From a phage, in the sequence record PZ445487.1: a stretch of 64,000 nucleotides of DNA; one strand, given 5' to 3'. The first letter of the stretch is position 1. Each line of letters opens with the position of its first letter. Below the pieces are notes generated by a model. That model worked only from the letters and a program-made list of their open reading frames with translations. It was not told where the DNA came from and did not search any database. Shown one piece after another: positions 4,129 through 50,258 of this stretch. The position numbers were made by a program, and so were the translations under genes.

Positions 4129-4177
4129 GTTATTTGTCTCATTATGGGGTTAGGCGGCAATTATACCGCCAATTTAT

Positions 4178-4591
4178 TCAATAGAGGTCTTCGGAAAAGA
4201 GTTTTTTGAAAGGAGTGTTCTTCAAACGGACCTGATTAGTTTGTCCGGCTTCACGGGCGACCACAGCGGCCTCTTCACGGGACATCCATTGCCCATAGTT
4301 ATCAATAAACCCTTGTTCACGAGTGTGGGTGGTTTCGATAATACCTGCTTCCTTCAATCGTTTGAGTTGCGTGTTCATCAATTTGTCGTGATGTCGGGCG
4401 CTTACAACGATCACATCACCATATTTGTTGGCAGCAGCCACAACACGCCGATCAAACTTGGTTGGGTCAGGTATATCACGAGCATACAAGGCGATGTGAG
4501 TGTCGTCCACGTCCCCTTTCACTTCAGAGTATAATTGACACCCATTAGGAGATCCAGTAGGCAAAGAACGAAAATATCCAAGTAATTTCAT
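4178..4591 (-). CDS. hypothetical protein (137 aa)
   Basis: ORF track; same strand as flanking genes; no motif recognised. Confidence 0.45.
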   Translation of the reverse strand: MKLLGYFRSLPTGSPNGCQLYSEVKGDVDDTHIALYARDIPDPTKFDRRVVAAANKYGDVIVVSARHHDKLMNTQLKRLKEAGIIETTHTREQGFIDNYGQWMSREEAAVVAREAGQTNQVRLKNTPFKKLFSEDLY

Positions 4592-10373: not shown

Positions 10374-10424
10374 TTGGTATATCCTCAGTTAGGTTCCGCT
10401 CATGGGGAACGGGTCCATTATACA

Positions 10425-10462
10425 CCCAATGCTGGAAATGAAAAAGAGGCCGAAGCCTCTTT
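10425..10462 (-). terminator. rho-independent terminator-like hairpin (aaagaggc-cgaa-gcctcttt) with T-rich tract on the minus strand
   Basis: 8-bp perfect stem directly at the stop of gene 10461..10682. Confidence 0.5.
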
Positions 10463-16997: not shown

Positions 16998-17074
16998 AGT
17001 ATAGAATTCCTGTTCAGATCAAAGAAGAACACATTATTGGGTAAGGTTATGATACTGGCGGGTGGTTCAATAGA

Positions 17075-17096
17075 AAAGCCTCCAATCGGAGGCTTT
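17075..17096. terminator. perfect 9-bp hairpin aaagcctcc-aatc-ggaggcttt
   Basis: Seen directly between gene 17105..17458 and rIIA. Confidence 0.5.
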
Positions 17097-18273: not shown

Positions 18274-18635
18274 TTTCGTTTACTCCGATTTTTATATTTC
18301 TTAGCCTGACGTTTATGTTGGGCGGCTCCATATAGGCGCGGCGGCTTTTGATAACGTTGTGACGCAATTATGTCTCTGTCATCGGCTTCACAATACGAAA
18401 TATCTGCCTTCCGTAACTGAGCCACCGCTTGAGATACCAAGGTTTTGCGTTCACTTTCTACCAGATCATCACAAATTATCATGCGTTCACCTGGTTCACA
18501 ACAACGTTTAGGAATATCGTCTACACTGATACATTCTACTTCAACACCTTTCAACTTTTCTTGAAGGATAATGGCCATAGTCCGAGCGCCGATTCCTCCT
18601 CCAATAATCGCTATCTTTCTTGTCTTGTCTGTCAT
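18270..18635 (-). CDS. hypothetical protein with N-terminal Rossmann-like GxGxxG motif
   Basis: KIAIIGGGIGARTMA dinucleotide-binding-like motif; start ambiguous (TTG 18665, ATG 18647 or 18635). Confidence 0.4.
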   Translation of the reverse strand: MTDKTRKIAIIGGGIGARTMAIILQEKLKGVEVECISVDDIPKRCCEPGERMIICDDLVESERKTLVSQAVAQLRKADISYCEADDRDIIASQRYQKPPRLYGAAQHKRQAKKYKNRSKRK

Positions 18636-18650
18636 GTTCTTGCCCATGAA

Positions 18651-18695
18651 AAGGGGATAGAGCAATAATACCCTATCCCCATTTATTGAAGAACT
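18651..18695 (-). promoter_or_regulatory. conserved intergenic hairpin element (ggggatag / ctatcccc, loop with TATTAT) preceded on the sense strand by TTCAATAAA
   Basis: One of three similar elements upstream of minus-strand genes (also 21637..21680 and 26262..26300). Confidence 0.35.
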
Positions 18696-18696
18696 A

Positions 18697-19119
18697 TTAG
18701 TCTTCCGAACCTACAACCCCACCACGCAGATCCTGTGCTGGCTTACCATCAGGTGCCATGACATAGATGGTATTGATAGTCTCAAACCAAGACAATAAAT
18801 CAACTCCTTCGGTGTATGGCGTTACCGGAACAGAAGTTTTGATTTCTTTCTGTTCATCCTTCAAATCCGGATGACTTCCCGATAGGGTTAACCAAGCGAA
18901 TCTTCCATTGGGATAAATAATGCCTTCTTTGAACATTACAATCTTTTTGCGAGGATTATTGGCTTCACCCAGGCACACCACCAGATGATGGATCATTTCG
19001 GGGCGCGTCAACAACGTGTCATCTTTGATAATGCCCTGCTTGACAGCAGAGATTACCACTTCATCCAGCAACGCCTGTTGCTGTTCCAGCGTCAGAGATT
19101 CGGTTAGTTTCACGCTCAT
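18697..19119 (-). CDS. hypothetical protein (140 aa)
   Basis: Start moved to ATG 19119, just after the stop of the upstream gene. Confidence 0.5.
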   Translation of the reverse strand: MSVKLTESLTLEQQQALLDEVVISAVKQGIIKDDTLLTRPEMIHHLVVCLGEANNPRKKIVMFKEGIIYPNGRFAWLTLSGSHPDLKDEQKEIKTSVPVTPYTEGVDLLSWFETINTIYVMAPDGKPAQDLRGGVVGSED

Positions 19120-19123
19120 AAGA

Positions 19124-19693
19124 TCAGCCTTTGAAGTTAATCGGAGTCTGGACACCAGAGTCAAATGCGGCCTGGGTGCGGGTGTCACTCACCACCTGAC
19201 ATGTCTTGTCAAGATCGATACGCGGATATCCAAAGATTCCTGCTATCAGAGAACCAGGGAACTGGCCAAGTTTAGTTTCATAGATCGCACATGCGTCCAA
19301 TTTTTTAGTTTGGCTAATGCGGAATTCATCCCGACCTGAGCTGATAACAACCTGAATCTCTTTGTACAAAGATGAATCAAACTGAATATTCTGTTCCTGA
19401 ATCCATTGCATTACTGCTTTAGAACCGTCTGCGCCATAACGGCCTTGGAAAGTATCTTTGATCACTTCCTTCAAACCGTTTTTGTACATGTCAGGAATCT
19501 GCGCCGTCTCCTGAACTTTGAGCGTGTAGTTGCTCAGGTGGTTTTCAGAATCTTTGTTGAACTTTTTGACCTGTTGTTCAATGCGGTTGAAGTCATTGAA
19601 ATAGCTAACCACACTGCCAATCCCAATTACAGCAAATGCTAGAATCGCCAACCCAACAATCCAACCAATTGAAATACCTTTACGTTGTGACAT
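19124..19693 (-). CDS. membrane-anchored protein (189 aa, N-terminal TM helix)
   Basis: N-terminal ISIGWIVGLAILAFAVIGIGSVV hydrophobic helix; ORF track. Confidence 0.55.
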   Translation of the reverse strand: MSQRKGISIGWIVGLAILAFAVIGIGSVVSYFNDFNRIEQQVKKFNKDSENHLSNYTLKVQETAQIPDMYKNGLKEVIKDTFQGRYGADGSKAVMQWIQEQNIQFDSSLYKEIQVVISSGRDEFRISQTKKLDACAIYETKLGQFPGSLIAGIFGYPRIDLDKTCQVVSDTRTQAAFDSGVQTPINFKG

Positions 19694-19708
19694 CTTTACT
19701 TCCTCTTG

Positions 19709-20818
19709 TTAAAACAAACGTTTATAAGTTCGACCATTGTACTGCATGCGGCCTAATATGAAAACTGCGGTAAAAGGGATACATCCAAACAGCACGACGA
19801 TAATCACTTCCCAAGTTTTAAGATCTCGCCATTTCAGATATTCCATTTCCTTCATCTCAACTCGGTTGTATCCCTTACTGATATTGACCGCAACTTCTTG
19901 GAACACGGATATGCCCATTGGTTTCCCAGTCAATGAAAGTCCGTTACGAGAATGGAGTTCCATGTTGTTCATGCCGTCGGCAAATGACGTAGACTTACCC
20001 CAATTAATTTTCATATCCTTTGAAATATCGGTGACTACAATAACATCGTTCTTTTTACCGCCAGACCATGCATATAGAAGTCCCTGAAAATATTCAACAG
20101 GCTGGCCAGAAGTCACAACCCAAACGATATTAACCTGACGTGAAGCACCTAATGTTTTCAGAGTATTGTTCAGATAATCATTCCAGTAATCAACAGGAAT
20201 GTCCATCCCTGACATATTCAGAACACGAGTTACTCGGTAATAATCATACACCCTCGGATATGAAGGGATATGCTCTTTGAACTTCTCGGCGAATTTCTGG
20301 TCAGATTTAGAGAATAATGAATCTTTGTTGCCCAGCACATAATTCATATATGAATGTTCACGTGCCGCAGGTTCCCCGATTTTAACTTGTGCCCAACGCG
20401 GAGGCTCTGTAGTACCCTGACGATCAATACGGTCAATGCTCAGATCACCGACGGTTGTTAATACGTCCCAATCAACGTCATAAGAGTGCTCATAGCATGT
20501 GCTGCAATGACGCGTTTGTGTACAAGATCGGTTATTTCCTGAACCTGTACAAGATGTTGTGTAATAACACATACATTCATAAGAATGTTCACAACCCACC
20601 TTATTCCGTTGCTTATCAGTTACATATCCATTCAGGATTTCCACGTCCCCAGAACTACCAAGGGAGAAAGCAGCATATAATCCCGACTGGATAAGGCAAG
20701 ACAATACGATAACAATGGCCGTGGCGATCAAAGTCTCCTTTGGCTCATGAGTCTTGCGGTGATATATCACAAACAAGATGGCCAAAATTACAGGAACCAC
20801 AAACAGAAGGTAAATCAT
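19709..20818 (-). CDS. membrane protein with N- and C-terminal TM helices and Cys-rich central domain (369 aa)
   Basis: N-terminal LLFVVPVILAILFVIY and C-terminal VIIVVLFGCIPFTAVFILG hydrophobic segments; central region with at least 10 Cys. Confidence 0.55.
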   Translation of the reverse strand: MIYLLFVVPVILAILFVIYHRKTHEPKETLIATAIVIVLSCLIQSGLYAAFSLGSSGDVEILNGYVTDKQRNKVGCEHSYECMCYYTTSCTGSGNNRSCTQTRHCSTCYEHSYDVDWDVLTTVGDLSIDRIDRQGTTEPPRWAQVKIGEPAAREHSYMNYVLGNKDSLFSKSDQKFAEKFKEHIPSYPRVYDYYRVTRVLNMSGMDIPVDYWNDYLNNTLKTLGASRQVNIVWVVTSGQPVEYFQGLLYAWSGGKKNDVIVVTDISKDMKINWGKSTSFADGMNNMELHSRNGLSLTGKPMGISVFQEVAVNISKGYNRVEMKEMEYLKWRDLKTWEVIIVVLFGCIPFTAVFILGRMQYNGRTYKRLF

Positions 20819-21201
20819 AACACACCATCCACGAGTTGTTCCTTCGTCATACCAAGAAGTTGATTTTTATGCTCAGATTTAGCCCCATTTTTCAACAACA
20901 GATCCCAACGTTCTTCATGATACTGTGGAGTCATTGCATCGTCAAAAGAAACATGGTGGAGATGCATAATTGTTGCAACGGTATGAAGAACGATTGCTGT
21001 TTCTCTTTTTAAAGCACGTGTATCCGTGATATGGTCTTCATATTCGATTCCCATCAAATCGAGTTCTTTTCGGATATATGCTATAGACAAATCACCTTCA
21101 GAATGCAATTTAACAATAGTCGCTTTCTTAGGATGTAACACGCCGTCTGTTTCTTTCATGAACAGATCGTACAGGTACTGTTTGTATTCGGACTGTGTCA
21201 T
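20815..21201 (-). CDS. hypothetical protein (128 aa)
   Basis: ORF track; 4-nt overlaps with neighbours. Confidence 0.5.
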   Translation of the reverse strand: MTQSEYKQYLYDLFMKETDGVLHPKKATIVKLHSEGDLSIAYIRKELDLMGIEYEDHITDTRALKRETAIVLHTVATIMHLHHVSFDDAMTPQYHEERWDLLLKNGAKSEHKNQLLGMTKEQLVDGVL

Positions 21202-21410
21202 TTAGATTCTCCCATGACGATAACAGGAGCGCCATTACGGAAACAACTATATTCTGCAGGAAGACCTTCGCGAACCTTCTGGGCGAACGCTTCAGAAACA
21301 ACCAAACGACCAACCAGAGGTTCTTTTTGTTTTGGGGTGGACTCAAAGTAATCACCAAAAGTCGCTTCCATATCGAGCACAGACATGTCTTCAATTCGTT
21401 GCATTGCCAT
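21198..21410 (-). CDS. hypothetical protein (70 aa)
   Basis: ORF track; ATGA-type overlap. Confidence 0.4.
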   Translation of the reverse strand: MAMQRIEDMSVLDMEATFGDYFESTPKQKEPLVGRLVVSEAFAQKVREGLPAEYSCFRNGAPVIVMGESK

Positions 21411-21421
21411 GATATAGGACC

Positions 21422-21613
21422 TCAGTATAATTTCGTATAAACTTGTTTAACGCCAATATCGGCAGGAGCTGTGCTCTGCTGCATATTATAGAATGCCAAA
21501 TCTGCTTGTTCTTTGTTTTCAAAATCAACTACAACTGTGTGTACTGATATTGCTTCACCCTGTCCATAAGCATAACAACGGCTGGTGACCAATATTTTGT
21601 ATTGAGGTGTCAT
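21422..21613 (-). CDS. hypothetical protein (63 aa)
   Basis: ORF track. Confidence 0.4.
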   Translation of the reverse strand: MTPQYKILVTSRCYAYGQGEAISVHTVVVDFENKEQADLAFYNMQQSTAPADIGVKQVYTKLY

Positions 21614-21636
21614 AAAATCAATCCTTGCAAAAAGAA

Positions 21637-21680
21637 AGGGGAACGGGCTAATAATAACCCATTCCCCTTTATTGAAGAAC
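21637..21680 (-). promoter_or_regulatory. conserved intergenic hairpin element (aggggaa / ttcccct, loop with TATTATT) plus TTCAATAAA
   Basis: Paralogue of the element at 18651..18695; upstream of gene 21422..21613. Confidence 0.35.
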
Positions 21681-21695
21681 GCAATCGCAATCAGA

Positions 21696-21863
21696 TTACT
21701 TTTTCTTCAGCTCGTCCAGTTTGGCTTCGATTTGTTCCAGGATGTCTTTACCCTTCTGAACAATCACTTCACCGTCTTGCGCGTGTTTGCGAAAGACCAG
21801 AGCGCCAGCGATGAAGCCGACAACCACACCAGGAAGCGCATAAACCAACAGATCTTGTAACAT
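21696..21863 (-). CDS. small membrane protein (55 aa)
   Basis: Not in ORF track (<60 aa). ATG 21863 preceded by GAGGA at 8 nt; translation MLQDLLVYALPGVVVGFIAGALVF... has one TM helix. Confidence 0.4.
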   Translation of the reverse strand: MLQDLLVYALPGVVVGFIAGALVFRKHAQDGEVIVQKGKDILEQIEAKLDELKKK

Positions 21864-21898
21864 GATAATATCCTCACTTTATAGCGAGGATATTTATA

Positions 21899-23140
21899 TC
21901 AGCGTTTCAAGAGTGTCATGAGGTTCACACTTTTAGAAGGATACACAGTACCATTTCGGCTCATGGTGTCCAATTTACCAACTGACAAACAAACCTCAGA
22001 CGGTTCCCAACGTGTACCCTGCTGTAAATGCCAGATATGTAGAGGAACACCCGTCTCAAAGAACACGGGCATCTTCCACTTCTGGACGCCTGGAACGTGC
22101 CCTGCAGGAGCCTTCTCACATAACAGGGTATCTGGTAGCCAGAGTGAACGGGCTTCCCAGAGAGGTGCACAGGAGTATTCAGGCCAAATACGTTCCATAT
22201 AATCGATCTCGTCCCATGTACGCTCGGCGTCCCACCCGATGTAACGGGTATTCTTCAGTCGGAAGAATTTCTTCAACCAACAAGCACCGGAGGTCTCAAA
22301 GTTCAGACGATTGATAAACGTGATGTGGCCAAACTCTTCAACGCATTCCTGAAACGCTTTCTCAAGGTCGGTTTCGAGTATATCACATTCTTCGTCTGTA
22401 ATAGGACAACCGTTAATCTTTTTCTTCCCGTGCTTGGTCACCCAATCATCACGGTTGGATAAGAATGCCGCGCCGTTACGATTGGATTCGCTACCATCAC
22501 GGTCACGCAACATGAAACCAGGGACGTCTATATCCCATATGTTACCGAAGACCATGTTCAGGGCTTCCAGGAAGTTCCATGCGCTCAGGCGACCGAAGTA
22601 TTTCCATGACATCGCCGTATTCCACAGTTCGGTGAATTGGTCTTCCTTGGTAGTGCATTCCAACATCCAACGAAAAGAATCCATTTGGGTTTTACCACCC
22701 AACCAATCGATATAGGACTGAACGCACGGAATCATCTTCGACTTACGATAACGACAATCTGTATCGAAGCGCATACGATCAAAGTTCAGGTTATACCAAT
22801 CAGAAAATCGCTGAAACTCTTTCGGAGATTGTGGGGGTACAGGAAATTCACTGTAAATTGTCCATGGTCCAATCCCATTATAGCAACAACCCCACAAAAA
22901 GGCCATCCAAATCTTGCGCTCGATCTTCTCGAGCTGTGTGATGCCTTCTGTAACCTCGATGGCATAATCCATCAGACGGACTTGCTGGTTATGCTCTTCA
23001 GTGTAGGATAGCGCCTCCACCCATGCCTTGAGCAGGTACATGCGATTTTCTGGCTTACGATAATCTACTGCCAGATCAATCGGGTATTTCCATTTTTCAG
23101 GGGCTTTATATCCCTGCGGCATTTTAGAAATGTGTATCAT
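21899..23140 (-). CDS. hypothetical protein (413 aa), Trp/Cys-rich
   Basis: Long ORF on the coding strand; no motif recognised. Confidence 0.55.
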   Translation of the reverse strand: MIHISKMPQGYKAPEKWKYPIDLAVDYRKPENRMYLLKAWVEALSYTEEHNQQVRLMDYAIEVTEGITQLEKIERKIWMAFLWGCCYNGIGPWTIYSEFPVPPQSPKEFQRFSDWYNLNFDRMRFDTDCRYRKSKMIPCVQSYIDWLGGKTQMDSFRWMLECTTKEDQFTELWNTAMSWKYFGRLSAWNFLEALNMVFGNIWDIDVPGFMLRDRDGSESNRNGAAFLSNRDDWVTKHGKKKINGCPITDEECDILETDLEKAFQECVEEFGHITFINRLNFETSGACWLKKFFRLKNTRYIGWDAERTWDEIDYMERIWPEYSCAPLWEARSLWLPDTLLCEKAPAGHVPGVQKWKMPVFFETGVPLHIWHLQQGTRWEPSEVCLSVGKLDTMSRNGTVYPSKSVNLMTLLKR

Positions 23141-23322
23141 CCGATTTTACTCCCGAGTTCAACACGGAACGCCAGATAGAAGAAAGTGGCGATCGATACT
23201 GGACAGATCACCAAGAATGGGCGCTGTTGCACCCCTTCTGTGACCATGACGCCGACCAGCGAAACCGTAAAGATAACGAACATCAGCATCATGAAGATAA
23301 AATCAACATGCTTGATTTTCAT
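23137..23322 (-). CDS. small membrane protein (61 aa)
   Basis: Two hydrophobic segments; ATGA overlap with downstream gene. Confidence 0.4.
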   Translation of the reverse strand: MKIKHVDFIFMMLMFVIFTVSLVGVMVTEGVQQRPFLVICPVSIATFFYLAFRVELGSKIG

Positions 23323-23689
23323 CTTTCACTTCCTCTACAGGAGAAACAACTTCAGGCTCAGCTTCGGGAGCCAGCTGAATTTCTTCGGGGCTTACTACGG
23401 GCTGTCCCAGAGACCAGATAGGCAGGAAACGACGATCATTCGTCACCAACCAAATTTGCTTGGCGGTTTTCGTCTTTTCGGAAATAAAATGCTGGGCATT
23501 GACCTGGGTACGAGCCAAACCCACCTGACGCCAAGAACCGAAATCCTTAGAAGAAGGATTGGTATTCAGTTGAAATTGTGGGACGATTTTATTCTGTTCC
23601 GGATAATAACGGACAGCGTTAATCATCTTCGCATCACCACGGTAATCAATAGCAACAGCGACAACGTTGCGTGGAATGAGGATTTTCAT
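23303..23689 (-). CDS. hypothetical protein (128 aa)
   Basis: ORF track. Confidence 0.45.
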   Translation of the reverse strand: MKILIPRNVVAVAIDYRGDAKMINAVRYYPEQNKIVPQFQLNTNPSSKDFGSWRQVGLARTQVNAQHFISEKTKTAKQIWLVTNDRRFLPIWSLGQPVVSPEEIQLAPEAEPEVVSPVEEVKDENQAC

Positions 23690-23690
23690 T

Positions 23691-23894
23691 TTAATTCCTT
23701 TTGAAACTCTGAATTATGTTATAGACGAAAGGCGTTAATAAGATAGCACCCCCCAAATAATATAACGCGTAAACGTTCAATATTTCGGTTGAATCCAACT
23801 CAACGATGCCCAAATATTTCATGACACCGACAAGCACAGCTGTGATACACATCACCAATCCGACGAACACAAAATATTTAGACATCTGTTTCAT
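23691..23894 (-). CDS. small membrane protein (67 aa)
   Basis: Two hydrophobic helices (FVFVGLVMCITAVLVGV, YYLGGAILLTPFVY). Confidence 0.45.
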   Translation of the reverse strand: MKQMSKYFVFVGLVMCITAVLVGVMKYLGIVELDSTEILNVYALYYLGGAILLTPFVYNIIQSFKRN

Positions 23895-23896
23895 TT

Positions 23897-24802
23897 CTAA
23901 CCCTTACTCAACAGGCCGAGAAGGGATACAGAGGACTTTGTTACCTCTCCCTTGGCGCTCGCCTTGGTTTTAGATTTGGTCGCCTTCTCAGGGACTCGAT
24001 GCGCTAGAGGATCATCCCCACCGACTTCACGCGTCATTGGGTCAGTTTCACAGAATCCGTAGAAATCTTTGATGTCCAGACCCATGGCGTGAAACTCACC
24101 ACGCATTTGATGATGAATAGCGTTGCCAATCACCCATAAAGGTGCATCAAACGGCATCATGGCTAATTCGCTATCATTTCCTGTTTTGAATTCTTGAGTG
24201 TTTGTAGGCGATTGACGGTACAACACGTCTTGCCCGCTGTAGTCATTGACCACCACTTCCCAACCCAGCACCAGCATTTCAGTCTTCGACTTCTCAAACT
24301 CCTTGGAGTAAGATTCGTTGCGTGACCAGCCGGAGTCCCCTGCTTCCTTACCAGAGCGACCACGGATGCGTGCATCATACTGATAGCGGTCTGGGTATGC
24401 AAAATAAAGCAACGCCAGAGATTCAATCGGATAGTTCTTGAACATCCATTCAGGACGCCATTTATCCGATAGCATGAGGGGTTCACCCTCGCACACCAAA
24501 GTGTAACCCTGAGCCAGCCAGCCTTTGACCAGATCACGGGCGATATCACCCGAGCCTGTGGCGGCGTGGATGGCGTCCATGGAAGTCCAGGAAGCCAGGC
24601 CGGATTTGTTGGACACAGTATACTGGCCAACGAAGATTAACTTCAGCTCTTCGAACTTCAGGCCGAATGGGCGCGTCTTGTCACCAATGGTGTAGGTGAG
24701 TTCAGTAGGCTCCAGCTTAGTTCGGAGCCATTCGATGAACTGGACTACTCTCGTACCCTTGCCCGTGGCCGAGGTGCCTTTCACTACAATTATTTTAGCC
24801 AT
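23897..24802 (-). CDS. P-loop kinase (dNMP kinase gp1-like or 5-hydroxymethyluracil DNA kinase-like)
   Basis: N-terminal Walker A IIVVKGTSATGKGT resembles the T4 gp1 N-terminus pattern. Confidence 0.55.
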   Translation of the reverse strand: MAKIIVVKGTSATGKGTRVVQFIEWLRTKLEPTELTYTIGDKTRPFGLKFEELKLIFVGQYTVSNKSGLASWTSMDAIHAATGSGDIARDLVKGWLAQGYTLVCEGEPLMLSDKWRPEWMFKNYPIESLALLYFAYPDRYQYDARIRGRSGKEAGDSGWSRNESYSKEFEKSKTEMLVLGWEVVVNDYSGQDVLYRQSPTNTQEFKTGNDSELAMMPFDAPLWVIGNAIHHQMRGEFHAMGLDIKDFYGFCETDPMTREVGGDDPLAHRVPEKATKSKTKASAKGEVTKSSVSLLGLLSKG

Positions 24803-25050
24803 TATGCATCTTCCTCAATACGCCAGCTCACACCGCCCAACCAGGGAGACCAGAAAACAGCAACCTGTGGACGTTCGTTTTCTACAAACTTCACTTTATA
24901 CTGGTCTTCAAAGTTATAGAAAATTTCATCGTCATCTGGTGCCATACCGTTTTCTATCAGAACACGCTTTAACTCCAGCGCCGCACCAACGGAAGTGGGT
25001 GTGGTTTGTTTACGAATGAAGTTGTTCACATGGATAATAACGCCATCCAT
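24802..25050 (-). CDS. hypothetical protein (82 aa; start uncertain)
   Basis: Start moved to ATG 25050 to avoid overlap with the HAD gene; stop overlaps kinase start. Confidence 0.35.
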   Translation of the reverse strand: MDGVIIHVNNFIRKQTTPTSVGAALELKRVLIENGMAPDDDEIFYNFEDQYKVKFVENERPQVAVFWSPWLGGVSWRIEEDA

Positions 25051-25117
25051 ATCGCTATCACCGGAACGCTTGTCTGGGGTTTCCCCAAACTTAGATTGTT
25101 CTTGCACGATGTCCTCC

Positions 25118-25900
25118 TCAACGGACGTATTGATAATGGCCAATCAGGCGATTCACCACTTCGACAATATTACGGTTCAGGAAGTCGAAGTGGTTCTGGC
25201 CTTCTACTGGTTTAATATAAAGCATATCTTCCGAGTTCGAAAGATCCAGTTTTTCATAATTTCCCTGAGGAACAAAGATGACAAAAATATTGTTCATCGC
25301 ACAGGGTTCAACGTATTTCGGGTTATCATCAATTAAAACATCACCTGCCAAAAGATGCTTTTCGTCGGTGCTGACAAACCCGTTGAAGATGCCAGGGAAC
25401 TTGTCATAGACAAACTGGCGCTTGCTGCGCTCGTGTTCTGGCTCACACTTAGATACTGCGATCAATTCAACATTTTCAAAGTCTTCGAGTAGGATCTTCT
25501 TCAGATTCACCAGGAACTCGTAAGCGCCTGGAAGCGGGTTCATCTTGGCATACAGGTCCGGCATGCGCCACCAATCCATAGGATCACGTCCTGTAGGTGA
25601 ATCCATCCATTGACCAGCAACAAACACACGGCGTGTCAACCATGCTGGGTGAGCGCGTTCCCGCATGAGGATCGCCAGATCACCAGCATGAGCCATATAG
25701 CACTCTTTGGTGATTGGTTGAAATTCAGATGGGTAGTCGTGACAACCCATGTTTTCCGCAGCAGCTTTTGAATTGGAAATATTAAACCAATCCACCCAAG
25801 GGGAGAGGCTATCAACCAAAGTCAAGTCTACGTCTACCAGGATACGATACATTCCACCGATTTTAGAATTGGCATCATACAGACCAACATGATTATTCAT
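25118..25900 (-). CDS. HAD-superfamily phosphatase (5'-deoxynucleotidase-like)
   Basis: Start ATG 25900 (GGAG at 8 nt); motif I ILVDVDLTLVD (DxDxT) and later LIDDNPKY (DD motif). Confidence 0.5.
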   Translation of the reverse strand: MNNHVGLYDANSKIGGMYRILVDVDLTLVDSLSPWVDWFNISNSKAAAENMGCHDYPSEFQPITKECYMAHAGDLAILMRERAHPAWLTRRVFVAGQWMDSPTGRDPMDWWRMPDLYAKMNPLPGAYEFLVNLKKILLEDFENVELIAVSKCEPEHERSKRQFVYDKFPGIFNGFVSTDEKHLLAGDVLIDDNPKYVEPCAMNNIFVIFVPQGNYEKLDLSNSEDMLYIKPVEGQNHFDFLNRNIVEVVNRLIGHYQYVR

Positions 25901-26237
25901 CAGACTTCTCCACTTGATCATAACCAGTTGCGGTGCATTGCTCTTCTGTGCAATCTGCATACAGAACCACAGAAGATTCCTTCACGTAAGTGGTGCAGTG
26001 ATAGGTTTCATCTTCCTGGATGGAATCATCATAATTGCAAACAGTTTGCAACGGACCAGGAGTGGTGTTGTCCAAAGCTGCATGTGCCTTGATGGTGTCT
26101 TCCATCTTATTCACCGCTTGCTGATTGGTGAACGTCGGCGCATCGAGGTCAACAGTAGACGCAACGTCCAGAAGGGTAGAGCATGCAGTGGTAGAGAAAG
26201 CCAGAGCACACACCAGAAGAATCTTATTGAGTTTCAT
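25893..26237 (-). CDS. putative lipoprotein (114 aa)
   Basis: Start ATG 26237; N-terminus MKLNKILLVCALAFSTTAC is signal-peptide plus lipobox-like. Confidence 0.5.
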   Translation of the reverse strand: MKLNKILLVCALAFSTTACSTLLDVASTVDLDAPTFTNQQAVNKMEDTIKAHAALDNTTPGPLQTVCNYDDSIQEDETYHCTTYVKESSVVLYADCTEEQCTATGYDQVEKSDE

Positions 26238-26261
26238 AACAATACCTGTTGTCAAAGGGAT

Positions 26262-26300
26262 AACAGGGGGAATTATATCCCCCTTTGGTTTATTGAATCA
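26262..26300 (-). promoter_or_regulatory. hairpin ggggg-aattatat-ccccc (sense loop GATATAAT) between DNA polymerase stop and lipoprotein start
   Basis: Third copy of the TTCAATAAA-plus-hairpin motif; the -10-like TATAAT lies in the loop. Confidence 0.35.
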
Positions 26301-30200: not shown

Positions 30201-30295
30201 AATATTTATTGAATAAAGTTTACTTCTTCAATAACTGGCGTATACTTCTAATTGTAGTACGAACAAACAACAATCTGAAGAGAAGGAAATACATC

Positions 30296-30853
30296 ATGGC
30301 AATCGAAATTATCGCTCAATCTAAATCCGGCAAAACTGTATTGTTCGGCACCGAAGAAGGCCGTGTAATCACCACTTTGGGCACAGTTGACGGCAGCAAC
30401 CCCGTAAAAGGCGGTCGCTTCCTGGTTGAGTACGGTTCTCGTGTCGTGATGGTAAGTAAAATTGATGGGCGTGATATCACCGCTCCTCGTCAAGAATTCT
30501 TTGATTCACGTTCTGCCGCCATGCAATTCTTTCTCTTCCAGAAACGTCATGAACTCTTTGTAGAAGCGAAAGACGCAGGTCTGGACGACGAAACGGCTGA
30601 GCTGATTGCCGAAGGTAAAATGACTCTTGAGACTGCTCTGGGAGACATGGATTGCGAAGCCGAAGCGCATTATATTGAATATTCCGCATATCAGAACGAA
30701 TGTGAAGATGATCCGGAAGACGACGGATTCGACCCTGACCTCCACGGCGGCGAAGACGATAACACCCCTTCCTTAGAAGTTCTGATGGCTGGCGGCCAGG
30801 CCGCTTGGGAATGGCAGAACGAGAAGAACGCCTGGCTGGATTCCCGTATCTAA
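30296..30853 (+). CDS. hypothetical acidic protein (185 aa)
   Basis: Start moved to ATG 30296 (AGAAGGAAAT upstream); acidic C-terminus. Confidence 0.5.
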   Translation: MAIEIIAQSKSGKTVLFGTEEGRVITTLGTVDGSNPVKGGRFLVEYGSRVVMVSKIDGRDITAPRQEFFDSRSAAMQFFLFQKRHELFVEAKDAGLDDETAELIAEGKMTLETALGDMDCEAEAHYIEYSAYQNECEDDPEDDGFDPDLHGGEDDNTPSLEVLMAGGQAAWEWQNEKNAWLDSRI

Positions 30854-32934: not shown

Positions 32935-32973
32935 AGATACCCCACACTGGTCGTATGGGGTATTTAGGATGGA

Positions 32974-34923: not shown

Positions 34924-34994
34924 GGTGTTTCCTCAAATCAATGAAGGGGTTTATAAACGGTTAAATTTTAAACCCCTCTTCCTCATTGAACAAA

Positions 34995-37182: not shown

Positions 37183-37383
37183 TCAACTATGTTTATTCGC
37201 TTCGATCGCCCCTAATTGGGCGTCCGCGTCAGCTTTGGTGTCATGTGTCCCAAGAACTTTAGTCTTGGTGTGGTCAAGGACAACCCACTTATCGCCTCGC
37301 TTTTCAACAAACTCAACAATCTCTTTGTTGTCAGTAGCGAGACCATCCCACTCAGTAAGAAACTCACCGAACGTTTTCATCAT
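37183..37383 (-). CDS. small hypothetical protein (about 66 aa) inside the tRNA island
   Basis: ATG 37383/37380 after GGTGAG; CTAAATA-like motif (plus-strand tatttag at 37412..37418) upstream. Confidence 0.3.
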   Translation of the reverse strand: MMKTFGEFLTEWDGLATDNKEIVEFVEKRGDKWVVLDHTKTKVLGTHDTKADADAQLGAIEANKHS

Positions 37384-37420
37384 ACTCACCAATTGTTTAT
37401 TGAACAACTGGTTTATTTAG

Positions 37421-37495: not shown

Positions 37496-37941
37496 TTTTG
37501 TTTCTTCAAATTATCTAACACATGTGGATTGGATTTCAACATCTTCTTCATGTTGGCCTCCTTACTCAGCAATTGTAAATTCCACAATACGCAATTATAC
37601 TTATTTTCATCAACATGATCTATTTCAAACCCTTCTGGGACTAGACCATTAAATGCAACCCAGACAAACCAGTGTAGATATTTCCTGAAATATTTGCCCT
37701 TATATTCTACTTTGATTTGCAAATAACCAGTTCCATTGTCTACGCCCACCAAATATCTTTCAGGTAGTTTTTGTTCATATTCTCCAAACTGATTTTTACG
37801 GCGTATAGTCAGTTCTGGCTTTTTAATTTTTCCATAGTTGCTGACAAATACATGAATGCCAATTTTGTCTAAATACAACTCTTTCCAAATCTCTTCCATA
37901 ACAACTACCCACAGCAATATGAATTTGTTGTGTCCAATCAA
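37486..37941 (-). mobile_element. HNH homing endonuclease gene (free-standing, abutting tRNA-Met)
   Basis: EIDHVDENKYNCVLWNLQLLSKEANMKK is a classic HNH motif; AT-rich relative to surroundings; 3' end overlaps the 5' end of tRNA-Met; start ambiguous (ATG 37899 or alternative start 37941). Confidence 0.55.
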
Positions 37942-38132
37942 GGACTGTCAACCTTTTATCCCGTTTGTGCATGATCAGTTCATGCAGGCCTCTTTGTGCG
38001 CCTCACGGCAACGCGCTTCTGTAGGTCATTGACTTGCACCGTAGTCTCACCACAGGCGTTTATTTTTCCAGGGCTTTCCACTTACAAGTCTTAACCAGAT
38101 CGGGATACGGGCTTGTAAGATCAGATTGGACA

Positions 38133-38210
38133 CAACTTTGATGGCTCTAGGACTAAAGATCCCGCGTCACCCATAGACTTGGTTTATAAAATCTAGAGCC
38201 ATCAAAGTTG
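38133..38210. repeat. perfect 18-bp inverted repeat (caactttgatggctctag / ctagagccatcaaagttg) enclosing 42 nt
   Basis: Seen directly; arms at 38133..38150 and 38193..38210. Confidence 0.7.
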
Positions 38211-38585
38211 CAACCAATGTCGCAACTCGCACTTCAGCGTCTTCGTCTCGCTTCAGCACTTGTCCTCTACGCTCGGACCAAACGAGGCTGGCCGACAGAA
38301 ACATGACACCACTCATCACTAGAGCGAGGATGTGGTTGATAGCCACGATGCTATATCTCTGTCGCAGAGTGATCACACTTGTCAGGATGATCACTGTTTT
38401 GCGAACTTGAAAATACTGCGCCTGTCTCGGGTTTCCCCTTAGTTCGGCCTCTCATTGTTCGTCTAGTCAGGGAGCTACCCTTGATGACCAGCTTATTTTG
38501 AGATCTTCGCCAGCACCCACTAGTGTCTAGAATATGTAGGTGTCGAGGTCTGCAAGGCATTGCCCTATTTCATACAACGCTCTCT

Positions 38586-38730
38586 CAAGTACGCAAATCG
38601 AAGTTCTCTGGGCTTAACAGGTTCGACCCAACATGTTGTATATCGCCTAACTTACTCATGGGACGGCCACTTCTGTGTACAGACCTTGAGGGTTAAAAGA
38701 TATACCCAAAGAACTTCGATTTGCGTTGTG
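38586..38730. repeat. long-range inverted repeat (17-bp core acgcaaatcgaagttct / agaacttcgatttgcgt) enclosing about 100 nt, followed by hairpin gtgggggc-aaa-cccccac
   Basis: Core arms at 38591..38607 and 38710..38726; hairpin at 38728..38745. Confidence 0.6.
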
Positions 38731-38884
38731 GGGGCAAACCCCCACACGGCTACTTCTTTGACAGGGATTGCTAGCCCTGGGGATTCCACTGTTTAAGGCT
38801 TTATCCCATAACGCCCGAGGCGCGTTTTAACTTATTGAAGCTTGCATAACTGCAAACTGATGCGCTGTGAGACACATCTTTGAG

Positions 38885-38992
38885 GGCACTCAGTGTACGA
38901 CAGGCTCCGATATTTCATAGGGCATTACTGCCTCGGATTTAAGTTGCCTTTCTCCTGAAACTCCATACAGTCTCGCGTCTGACGCGGAATGC
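38885..38992. repeat. long-range inverted repeat (atctttgagggca / tgccctcaaagat) enclosing about 82 nt
   Basis: Arms at 38885..38897 and 38980..38992. Confidence 0.55.
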
Positions 38993-39003
38993 CCTCAAAG
39001 ATA

Positions 39004-39031
39004 TGGAGCCGTTTTAGGGAGTCGAACCCAA
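39004..39031 (-). other. orphan tRNA 3'-module with encoded CCA (T-arm TTGGG-TTCGACT-CCCTA, acceptor AAACGGC)
   Basis: No canonical D/anticodon arms within 120 nt upstream; a possible 5' partner GCCGTTA lies at 39121..39127. Confidence 0.3.
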
Positions 39032-39130
39032 ATGCTTGGCCAGCGCTGACCTTACATCCCATCTGACTTAGGCAACCCACCTCTGCTTACTCAGGAGCTT
39101 ATCCCCTTTGGACAGTCAGATATAACGGCT

Positions 39131-39158
39131 TTGGGATTGGAGGAAGGACTCGAACCTT
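39131..39158 (-). other. orphan tRNA 3'-module with encoded CCA (T-arm GAAGG-TTCGAGT-CCTTC, acceptor CTCCAAT)
   Basis: Upstream 41 nt is too short for D plus anticodon arms and no 5-7-5 hairpin is found. Confidence 0.3.
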
Positions 39159-39231
39159 CTCATGTACGCTCCTGATTTCTCAGAAGTAGTCTGCTCCCAT
39201 CGACCTATTAAGTACACGCTCCGCTCATTGT

Positions 39232-39262
39232 CGGCGGGAGATTATTAATCACACCCTCCCGC
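39232..39262. repeat. hairpin ggcgggag-(15 nt)-ctcccgcc
   Basis: 8-bp GC-rich stem seen directly. Confidence 0.5.
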
Positions 39263-39545
39263 CTATTTTAGTGCGCCGAATTTTGTTATGAGGAATCGGA
39301 AGACCTCACTGGTGTATGGCTATTAAGCTACTGCCAGGAACGTGTTATCATTAGCGATTATTTTTGTGGTCAGTTTCTAAAAACCCGCAAAGTCACGCAC
39401 AACGAAAACGAAAACCTGTTTGAGTCCTAAACCTACCTGTCTTGGTCTCACATCGCTATGAGTGGCCAGGACTCAAACAGCTTGCCGTTCAGTGAGTTAA
39501 CTATACTTTGTAACCCGTTATTGATAAAACCTTTTATTTTTGTTG

Positions 39546-39569
39546 ACGAGGGTGTGGAATCGAACCACA
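39546..39569 (-). other. orphan tRNA 3'-module without CCA (T-arm TGTGG-TTCGATT-CCACA)
   Basis: Possible 5' acceptor partner about 100 nt upstream (39644..39650). Confidence 0.25.
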
Positions 39570-40273
39570 CTTCTGAGCGCCACCCCGTGTCACCAATGCA
39601 CCACCTCACCATCGATTTGCCGGAACTTACGCATCCGGCCTCGTCCTGTCGGTGTTCTTCTGAATCCGGGAAGATCAGCAGGAACTATGAATCAAGTTAA
39701 TTCAACCAACAGGAATCCTCTTGTTGCCCTTTGACGCAACATTATGAACCCTCTATGAAGACTCATAATGTTGTCGGCGTGATGGAGATTAGCGCCCCCG
39801 ACCTCCCCTTATATGTTGGTGTCGACTTGCCAACGGGGTGCTCTCGTTTTTCTGAGCTAATCACGCTACAACAGGGAGTTTCGTTCTCCGACGGTCAAGT
39901 GCGTCCACTGACACCAGCGAGGTGGCTATTACGCCTCTATTCACACAAGCCCCTGAGACTAGGGGTTAACTGGTTTTGGGCTGCAAACCCGACTCCCACT
40001 GTGTTATTTCCCTCATGTTTAATACTTTACCGCAGCCCAGCTAATTTGAAAAGTCCTCTCCCCTTTGAGCTACACTGCCCACAGCAGTGCGGACGAACCT
40101 TCACTCAAAACCGGATGCGCCGAAGTGGGCAACTGTTTACCGGACTGATCAGGTAGACCCAGGAGAGAGCAGGTAATCCCGATCAGGAGGATGAGGAGTA
40201 ACATCATGTAAAACATAGTGTTCCCTCCCTTCCATGCAACTAACTTTACTACAATTATTTATTGAATAAAGCG

Positions 40274-40846: not shown

Positions 40847-41151
40847 GAGAGGTTCCTTGATAACGGTTGTTTGTCCAGACTATTATATTCGTACAAGTGT
40901 TATTGAATTAAAGGCCAACAAAATAGGAGCGTGATTTATTAATAGGTAAAAACTACTTTTCTACAACATCAAGAAACTGTATCTTAACGCGGTGCCCTTC
41001 GAGTTGTGAGTGTTAACGAACAACGAGAAGCAGCCTCCATGGCTGTGGAATGGGACTGCCTGTCAAGGCGGTGTTACGAGCGAGGGCGTCAGCCCCCTCG
41101 CGAGTATATTCGAATAAATTAAACGCGCGCGAGCGTTTTGATTCCCGTTGG

Positions 41152-45013: not shown

Positions 45014-45053
45014 CTAAATACCCCTAGATGACATGAATACATTTAGGGGTATT
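45014..45053 (+). promoter_or_regulatory. late promoter motif CTAAATACCCC overlapping a 9-bp hairpin (atacccctA...Taggggtat) upstream of TSP4
   Basis: Same architecture upstream of TSP3 and TSP2. Confidence 0.5.
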
Positions 45054-48207: not shown

Positions 48208-48264
48208 AAATTTTATTGGTTCTCAGACTAAATACCCCATATTGGTCATCCTTTATGGGGTATT
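48208..48264 (+). promoter_or_regulatory. 57-nt conserved element: late promoter CTAAATACCCC (48228..48238) plus hairpin ataccccat/atggggtat
   Basis: Nearly identical to 50202..50258. Confidence 0.5.
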
Positions 48265-50201: not shown

Positions 50202-50258
50202 TAAATTTTATTAGTTCAGACTAAATACCCCATATTGGCAAATCCTTTATGGGGTATT
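50202..50258 (+). promoter_or_regulatory. 57-nt conserved element: late promoter CTAAATACCCC (50221..50231) plus hairpin
   Basis: Paralogue of 48208..48264. Confidence 0.5.

Follow-up and report, generated by a model that had tools for sequence, protein, structure and literature searches.

Among the closest described counterparts of the elements considered here are the middle promoters of phage T4, in which a box centred at −30 lies 12 ± 1 bp from an excellent −10 element and replaces the −35 element, and which lie ahead of genes for replication, nucleotide metabolism and tRNAs (Hinton 2010, PMC2988021). The genome paper of Escherichia phage CBA120 found no early and middle promoters by informatics, held that many must exist, and reported no MotA/AsiA-like system; a 2024 review of the Ackermannviridae mentions neither promoters, terminators nor transcription. 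The DNA analyzed here is a 64,000-nucleotide stretch of phage sequence (record PZ445487.1, hereafter the window), and the elements in question are three sites on its minus strand at which the 8-mer TTCAATAA is followed by a hairpin with a −10-like hexamer at its apex. Judging from sequence, we consider it about 65% probable that these are compact terminator/promoter cassettes that punctuate a long co-directional gene array.

The window is CBA120 sequence (JN593240 / NC_016570; Kuttervirus, Ackermannviridae), with 100% identity over the 9 kb around the sites. A window position x translates to 174302 − x on the other strand of the record, whose start lies within the window; genome-wide counts were made on the whole assembled genome of 157,304 bp, ~8% of which is intergenic. 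The minus strand of the window carries every gene from DNA polymerase to rIIA, and the genes flanking the cassettes are co-directional on both sides. Most likely the cassettes split the array downstream of the DNA polymerase gene into putative units of nine genes (orf238-249), six genes (orf250-255) and at least three genes (orf256-258).

A preliminary description of this DNA had pointed to three copies of a hairpin with a −10-like loop, and all three are present on the minus strand, with TATTAT, TATTAT and TATAAT at the apex of a G-rich/C-rich hairpin. Absent from that description was the spacing: the gap between TTCAATAA and the hexamer is exactly 12 nt at all three sites. Site 1 reads TTCAATAAA-TGGGGATAGGG-TATTAT-TGCTCTATCCCC-TTTT on the minus strand, as do the positions that follow. 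Its TTCAATAA box lies at 18683..18690 (with A as ninth base at 18682), ~−32 to −25 from the predicted start, and the hexamer at 18665..18670. The hairpin (GGGGATAGGG / TATTATTG / CTCTATCCCC; 18653..18680) has ten pairs, one of them G·U, between a 5′ arm at 18671-18680 and a 3′ arm at 18653-18662; a T tract, TTTT at 18649..18652, abuts the stem, and the orf256 start codon is at 18633-18635. Site 2 reads TTCAATAAA-GGGGAATGGGT-TATTAT-TAGCCCGTTCCCC-TTTCTTTTT, with the box at 21669..21676, the hexamer at 21651..21656 and a hairpin (GGGGAATGGG / TTATTATTAG / CCCGTTCCCC; 21638..21667) whose arms, 5′ at 21658-21667 and 3′ at 21638-21647, can be lengthened to 16 pairs by flanking AAA and TTT. The T tract TTTCTTTTT follows at 21629..21637, ahead of the orf250 start codon at 21611-21613.

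Site 3 reads TTCAATAAA-CCAAAGGGGGA-TATAAT-TCCCCC-TGTTATCC. The preliminary description had placed this copy between the DNA polymerase stop and the next gene, and its box (26290..26297) indeed begins 1 base past the polymerase stop codon TGA (26298-26300), the site standing 60 nt before the next start codon. Its hairpin (AGGGGGA / TATAAT / TCCCCCT; 26265..26284) has the −10 consensus as its entire loop (26272..26277), and TTGATT stands 18 bp upstream of this hexamer, for 10/12 sigma-70 matches. A T tract follows the hairpin directly at two of the three sites (TTTT at site 1, TTTCTTTTT at site 2); the gene-strand tail of site 3, TGTTATCC, does not qualify as one. Directly past site 3 there is a second small hairpin, CCTGTT...AACAGG with TTGACA (26245..26267, minus strand), which ends at the ribosome-binding region of orf238, just before the start codon at 26235-26237. 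The TTGACA is conserved, and CCCTTTGACAA is kept in every sampled genus except Miltonvirus (four of five).

The preliminary description had proposed a genome-wide motif search as a check, and the search places the three sites in a class enriched over chance. TTCAATAAA occurs nine times in the window versus 1.5 expected (0/100 shuffles reach nine), and TTCAATAA occurs 44 times in the whole CBA120 genome versus 11 ± 3 in first-order Markov simulations. With membership defined by TTCAATAA with up to one mismatch and a hexamer matching TATAAT at five or more of six positions, A2 and T6 among them, the combination of 8-mer, N12 and good −10 is found 13 times in the genome, versus 1.3 ± 1.2 expected and a simulation maximum of six (100 Markov runs). 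The histogram of 8-mer-to-hexamer distances has one sharp peak, at 12 nt. Twelve of the 13 members are intergenic or on a stop codon, all 12 are oriented toward the next gene, and nine of these have a start codon 53-67 nt downstream of the 8-mer. Adding intergenic spacings of 11, 13 and 14 gives ~17 candidates, about half of them embedded in terminator-like hairpins. The 8-mer and the hexamer hold the information content of the motif, to which only a weak T, three bases upstream, and a G at −15 are added. A purine occupies the predicted +1 at 12/17 sites, which is suggestive, not significant; at sites 1 and 2 the predicted start base, ~7 nt past the hexamer, is A or G. The spacing is also kept at sites that have no hairpin (record positions 133395, 26056 and 85281), the first of which is TTCAATAA-N12-TATAAT at window 40882..40907 on the minus strand, 61 nt upstream of orf218. 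An 8-mer/hexamer pair that is independent of the hairpin, intergenic, co-oriented with the genes and at a constant distance from the start codon, and whose hexamer evolves like a −10 element, argues for a promoter-like DNA signal. An IMG/VR pattern scan for TTCAATAA-N12-TATAAT returned at least 120 stretches, nearly all of them single matches in unrelated contigs, a chance background that is uninformative on distribution.

The class resembles T4 middle promoters in having an excellent TAtaaT −10 and a conserved 8–9-bp box near −30 instead of a −35 element, in its box-to-−10 distance of 12 bp (counted from the 8-mer) or 11 bp (from the 9-mer), and in its position upstream of replication, nucleotide-metabolism and tRNA genes. 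The boxes themselves differ, TTCAATAA in CBA120 and (a/t)(a/t)(a/t)TGCTTtA in T4. T4-type MotA boxes are not enriched in CBA120: TGCTTnA-N11-13-TAnnnT occurs three times, always in coding sequence, versus 4.2 ± 1.8 expected. Searches of CBA120 with T4 queries (tblastn and phmmer) found no homologues of AsiA or MotA (best E-values 0.29 and 5.4); the AsiA query was validated by the 1169 phage records it recovers. Nor did 69 kb of T4 that were scanned contain a MotA-box site with its −10 at a hairpin apex. Two T4 sites, at ~7191 (−) and 20588 (−), upstream of motB and dmd, are early-promoter-like (GTTTAC-N17-TATAAT or TATAGT) and have the −10 in the apex of a GC hairpin, with neither a T tract nor a −30 box. 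The overlap of −10 and hairpin is therefore not unique to the Ackermannviridae, but it forms no systematic class in the T4 sequence scanned.

Orthologous regions were compared in Matapan, SPTD1 and Vi01 (Kuttervirus), AG3 (Agtrevirus), Coodle (Limestonevirus), Menlow and IME250 (Taipeivirus) and Kevin (Miltonvirus), with 22 further IMG/VR loci added. All three cassettes are found in every sampled lineage, five genera in all. The 8-mer is conserved at 100% among 18 distinct variants of site 1 (versus 80% for the 20 nt upstream), 100% among 20 variants of site 2 (versus 74%) and 98% among 14 variants of site 3 (versus 72%). Counted in a fixed register, A2 and T6 of the hexamer are retained in 47 of the 52 variants (18/18, 18/20 and 11/14 at sites 1, 2 and 3), and the exceptions at site 3 are the Miltonvirus copies, where the spacing is 14. 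The site 1 hexamer is TATTAT in 18/18 variants; orthologues of site 2 have TATTAT, TAATAT, TATATT or GATAAT. At site 2 of Taipeivirus a stem G has been lost and a loop-adjacent C gained, and the spacing stays 12. More generally the spacing peaks at 12 in each of four lineage groups, and at 12 and 14 in Miltonvirus. The T tracts after sites 1 and 2 are conserved in all genera sampled. One might suppose that the cassettes are left over from a duplicated or mobile repeat and no longer have a function, as sites 1 and 2 are visibly paralogous, with GTTCTTCAATAAA in common and similar arms. We find this hardly credible, since the modules are better conserved across the five genera than the flanking coding DNA, the differences between the paralogues are compensatory, other members have unrelated stems, and there are no target-site duplications or terminal repeats.

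The hairpins are more stable than dinucleotide shuffles at all three sites (z = −3.9, −6.1 and −2.2 for sites 1, 2 and 3, the last being the weakest), and z-scores across the modules of the class range from −2.2 to −6.9. A pooled alignment of the site 1 and site 2 variants yields a 16-pair consensus helix in which 94.6% of cells are paired, versus 85.3% in column shuffles (0/500 reach the observed value). Compensatory changes affecting both sides occur at 7/16 pairs, and the covariation score of 0.446 compares with 0.03–0.16 when the 3′ partners are slid by 1–3 columns. In nine of 11 CBA120 modules the sense strand folds more stably than the antisense strand, with a summed difference over the 11 of −33.8 kcal/mol, and G·U pairs occur almost exclusively in the sense fold. 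Both are expected of an RNA hairpin in the gene-strand transcript and not of a DNA cruciform, site 3 being the exception. A hairpin that is specific to one orientation, contains G·U pairs and stands, with its T tract, directly past a stop codon amounts to a terminator-like RNA signal.

This raises the question of whether the sites are simply intrinsic terminators, with TTCAATAAA just an A-rich tract serving to lengthen the stem by pairing with the U tract or to let termination work in both directions, and with the −10 resemblance an accident of an AT-rich loop. The likeness is considerable, as intrinsic terminators share the GC-rich stem, the G-rich 5′ arm and C-rich 3′ arm, the U tract (as far as sites 1 and 2 go) and the position immediately past a stop codon. 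The hairpin and T tract of sites 1 and 2 fit this directly, AAA pairs with TTT in the consensus fold, site 3 has a T-rich tail behind it when read from the opposite strand, and in Matapan and Menlow the counterparts of the site 1 and site 2 hairpins were annotated, independently, as terminators and as nothing else. A consensus scan likewise ranks sites 1 and 2 as the two best gene-strand terminator-like hairpins of the region; it calls site 3 a sigma-70-like promoter (TTGATT-18-TATAAT) and not a gene-strand terminator. The cassettes differ from intrinsic terminators in that their apex is a conserved 6–10-nt −10-like sequence and not a tetraloop, that a conserved 8-mer precedes the hairpin at a fixed distance, and that site 3 has no U tract. 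TTCAAT is invariant yet is not explained by A/U pairing, the 8-mer and hexamer stand exactly 12 nt apart also where there is no hairpin, and A2 and T6 persist through the variation of the hexamer. Most other T-tract hairpins in the genome have tetraloops such as TTCG or GAAA and lack the 8-mer, whereas nine of the 12 intergenic GC-rich hairpins with a −10-like hexamer at the apex have the 8-mer 11–14 nt upstream. A bidirectional terminator would also have no obvious use between co-directional genes. On balance we consider termination alone an improbable account of the sites.

About as improbable is the converse, that the sites are promoters only and the inverted repeat is a 3′-end stabiliser or processing site of the upstream mRNA, or else a DNA hairpin extruded so as to expose the non-template strand of the −10 and aid opening. 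Site 3, a conserved hairpin with TATAAT as its loop and no T tract, suits this idea, the stem sequence is conserved beyond the needs of a mere hairpin, and hairpin promoters exist in phage N4. Yet the sense fold is the more stable one and holds nearly all G·U pairs, which points to selection on RNA and not on a DNA cruciform, the T tracts past sites 1 and 2 are kept in all genera, and the hairpin-free members indicate that the promoter-like core needs no hairpin.

A conserved single-stranded motif followed by a variable stem with a conserved loop also matches the architecture of the lambda nut site (boxA plus boxB), and the RNA-level constraint on the hairpin would suit an RNA site of this kind, in which a phage antiterminator or some other protein that binds RNA would recognise the linear 9-mer and the stem. 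This strikes us as very unlikely: the 8-mer/hexamer spacing is kept where there is no stem, the consensus of the loop is identical to that of a −10 element, A2/T6 signature included, and the element lies at the end of the upstream transcript and not near a promoter to be modified. Rfam gave no match of the cassettes to any curated covariance model; only three tRNAs reached the gathering score in the 64-kb window. Lambda nut sites act only as RNA and have no U tract after them, and N4 promoters require the virion RNA polymerase and have 3-nt loops. Both resemble the cassettes in that a conserved linear motif, or a hairpin whose loop is conserved, serves as a signal in transcription, but neither explains the fixed 8-mer/−10 spacing at the hairpin-free CBA120 sites.

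The preliminary description had offered two interpretations, regulatory RNA hairpins or combined terminator/early-promoter modules. The former now appears less likely, given the spacing kept in the absence of a hairpin and the fact that the hairpins leave the ribosome-binding site and start codon free (the 3′ arms reach to 18653, 21638 and 26265, and the start codons follow from 18635, 21613 and 26237). The terminator/promoter part of the latter is favoured by the hairpin-free 8-mer/−10 pairs and by the oriented RNA hairpin with its T tract; its "early" part is not established, as the geometry is not that of a sigma-70 promoter with a −35 element. The hexamers of sites 1–3 (TATTAT, TATTAT and TATAAT) all fit the −10 pattern TAnnnT, and only site 3 has a −35-like hexamer, TTGATT at 18 bp.

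Several observations weigh against reading the sites as terminator/promoter cassettes. Sites 1 and 2 have no sigma-70 −35 element at 16–18 bp (TTCTTC stands at 17 bp and was not reported by the consensus scan). There is also no extended −10 (TGn), as GGG, GGT and GGA precede the hexamers and the class consensus before TATaAT is g G n g. It is therefore doubtful that the holoenzyme by itself would be active on them, and the additional factor that would read the 8-mer is hypothetical. Some members have a spacing of 11, 13 or 14. One candidate, TTCAATAA-N12-TATGAT at 37379..37404 on the minus strand, directly past tRNA-Met, has the 8-mer and not the −10 in a hairpin loop and is ambiguous, with the annotated ATG of orf223 overlapping its hexamer. 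On the terminator side, much of the stem covariation separates the two paralogous groups and the Miltonvirus copies, so the number of independent events is small; site 3 has no gene-strand T tract, and the antisense strand folds its stem just as stably; and an efficient intrinsic terminator would be expected to have a shorter loop than the 6–10 nt seen here (counted before internal A·U pairing). Finally, no transcript-mapping study of the Ackermannviridae was found in the literature searched, and the abstract of the 2012 proposal of the genus Viunalikevirus is said to refer to conserved regulatory sequences, so that paper may already describe the motif.

If the terminator/promoter reading is correct, TTCAATAA and the TAtaaT hexamer 12 bp downstream would form the promoter core for host RNA polymerase, with the hexamer serving as the sigma-70 −10 element. 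The 8-mer, in the position of the T4 middle-promoter activator box, would probably be read by a phage or host factor and not by sigma region 4. Functional sigma-70 spacers are ~15–19 bp long with an optimum of 17, and TTCAAT was rejected as a general −35 element, its spacer being 14 bp. Where N14 follows the 8-mer, as at site 3 of Miltonvirus, the spacer becomes 16 bp and TTCAAT could possibly act as a −35. Integration host factor (IHF) as the reader was rejected on inspection, its consensus WATCAAnnnnTTR not fitting the sites, and Pfam searches with six annotated regulator-type proteins gave nothing beyond a zinc ribbon, domains of unknown function and one protein of the HU/IHF family (orf125), none of which could be tied to the 8-mer. 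The orf125 product, encoded outside the window, is a DNA-binding protein of that family (Pfam Bac_DNA_binding, E = 8e-30). In phage SPO1 the HU-type protein TF1 prefers hydroxymethyluracil DNA, and ViI-like phages carry modified thymidines.

In the proposed mechanism the G-rich and C-rich arms and the U tract would stop transcripts arriving from upstream. The lack of a T tract at site 3 may mean poor or no termination there, and this site would perhaps only pause transcription or stabilise the RNA. With the −10 in the loop, transcription would start ~7 nt later, within the 3′ arm. An RNA initiated at the cassette would then lack the 5′ arm, and so the terminator could not form on it; a single 45-bp cassette could in this way end the upstream unit and start the next without terminating its own transcript. 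The cassettes most likely combine elements of known kinds, a promoter, an intrinsic terminator and a promoter within a hairpin, in a variant that would carry the −10 in the terminator loop.

A precedent for the last of these is T4 gene e (lysozyme), for which, as for soc, McPheeters et al. in 1986 reportedly described a late promoter inside the sequence coding for a hairpin that hides the ribosome-binding site and so provides translational control. The cassettes share with gene e a promoter within an inverted repeat and the consequence that only read-through RNA can fold, RNA from the internal promoter lacking the 5′ arm (in CBA120, given the predicted start). They differ in that gene e hides its ribosome-binding site, whereas the cassette hairpin ends 13–25 nt upstream of the start codon and is then followed, at sites 1 and 2, by a T tract, as for a transcriptional stop.

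A hairpin more like that of gene e occurs elsewhere in CBA120. A late-promoter-like CTAAATAcCcc motif, of a type annotated as "late gene promoter" in a Kuttervirus record, precedes structural genes and lies in the 5′ arm of an ATACCCC...GGGGTAT hairpin whose 3′ arm ends 3–8 nt before the start codon. Such sites are found at window 32937-32968 (−), 45014-45053 (+), 48226-48245 (+) and 50219-50238 (+), with at least four more elsewhere in the genome. From their layout these hairpins look like a gene e/soc arrangement, in which the ribosome-binding site would be hidden in read-through transcripts only.

CBA120 also has a second promoter-like class, class B, with the form (G)TTTAC-N17-TATAmT and with TTCTTCAATAA in the spacer, which resembles T4 early promoters and usually stands directly past a tetraloop terminator. 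Copies were found at window 30218-30246 (+) and at record positions 97482, 62089, 56234, 30516, 78204 and 49722. The three sites share with class B, and with T4-type early promoters (GTTTAC-N17-TATAAT), a sigma-70 −10 and a directly adjoining terminator, and TTCAATAA is also present within the spacer of the class B sites. In class B a proper −35, (G)TTTAC, stands at 17 bp and merges with the T tract of the upstream terminator; the three sites lack a −35 of this kind, and their −10 is in the loop.

Other features of the same DNA may be noted. A perfect 13-bp palindrome, TTTATT[CG]AATAAA (form TTTATTGAATAAA), occurs three times in the genome, at window 30205-30217 and 40258-40270 and at record position 97496, against an estimated ~0.07 expected. 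All three copies are intergenic, which fits a protein-binding site and suggests the site of a dimeric DNA-binding protein or an UP-like element; the TTGATTCAATAAA of site 3 is a one-mismatch version. A further candidate of the TTCAATAA class, TTCAATGA-N12-TAAAAT with a hairpin at 34943-34978, lies upstream of orf227 (34943..34990, minus strand). The rIIA-side array contains additional terminator/promoter-like junctions, at window 4153-4181, 1704-1734, 10417-10460 and 17049-17096 (all minus strand). In one of these, TTGAATAAA-N7-TATAAT, a GGCGG/CCGCC hairpin contains the −10, two consist of a tetraloop terminator followed by TATAAT, and one has a terminator followed by TTCTATTG-N13-TATCAT upstream of rIIA, its Miltonvirus counterpart being TTCAATAG-N14-TATAAT. 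Adjoining the tRNA cluster, between orf219 and an HNH endonuclease, 2.17 kb (window 37900-40069) carry no annotated gene but contain many small hairpins and one TTCAATAA-like site with N12 and TATAGT, with no Rfam match at gathering score. The "putative regulatory elements" that PHIRE identified in PhiSH19 (e.g., TTGCCATGATGTATTTCCTT) correspond, on the complementary strand, to a repeated ribosome-binding/start region (AAGGAAATACATCATGGCAA) that precedes several small early-type genes in CBA120, for example at window ~30280-30300 (+).

Neither TTCAATAA, nor terminators with a −10 in the loop, nor transcript maps appear in the genome papers of CBA120, AG3, LIMEstone and PhiSH19, in the EspM4VN and Vi01-like papers, or in the 2024 family review. 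A broader proposal, which we put forward only tentatively and regard as rather doubtful, is that TTCAATAA is the −30 box of a MotA/AsiA-free, middle-type promoter class common to all Ackermannviridae, a second, independently evolved redirection of host sigma-70 polymerase through a box-reading activator, with the −10 in the terminator loop as a self-insulating switch. If this were true, the same 45 bp would stop early read-through and start factor-dependent transcription that is immune to that terminator.

The Ackermannviridae (ViI-like phages) are widely used in biocontrol, diagnostics and engineering, and their pre-replicative transcription programme is essentially uncharted. The family-wide TTCAATAA-N12-TATAAT is a concrete candidate for the missing promoter class and may provide a map of transcription-unit boundaries. 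A cassette with its −10 in the loop, which would terminate and re-initiate within 45 bp, would be a very compact part for synthetic biology. Should a dedicated factor read the 8-mer, these phages would offer a new example of phage takeover of the sigma-70 polymerase.

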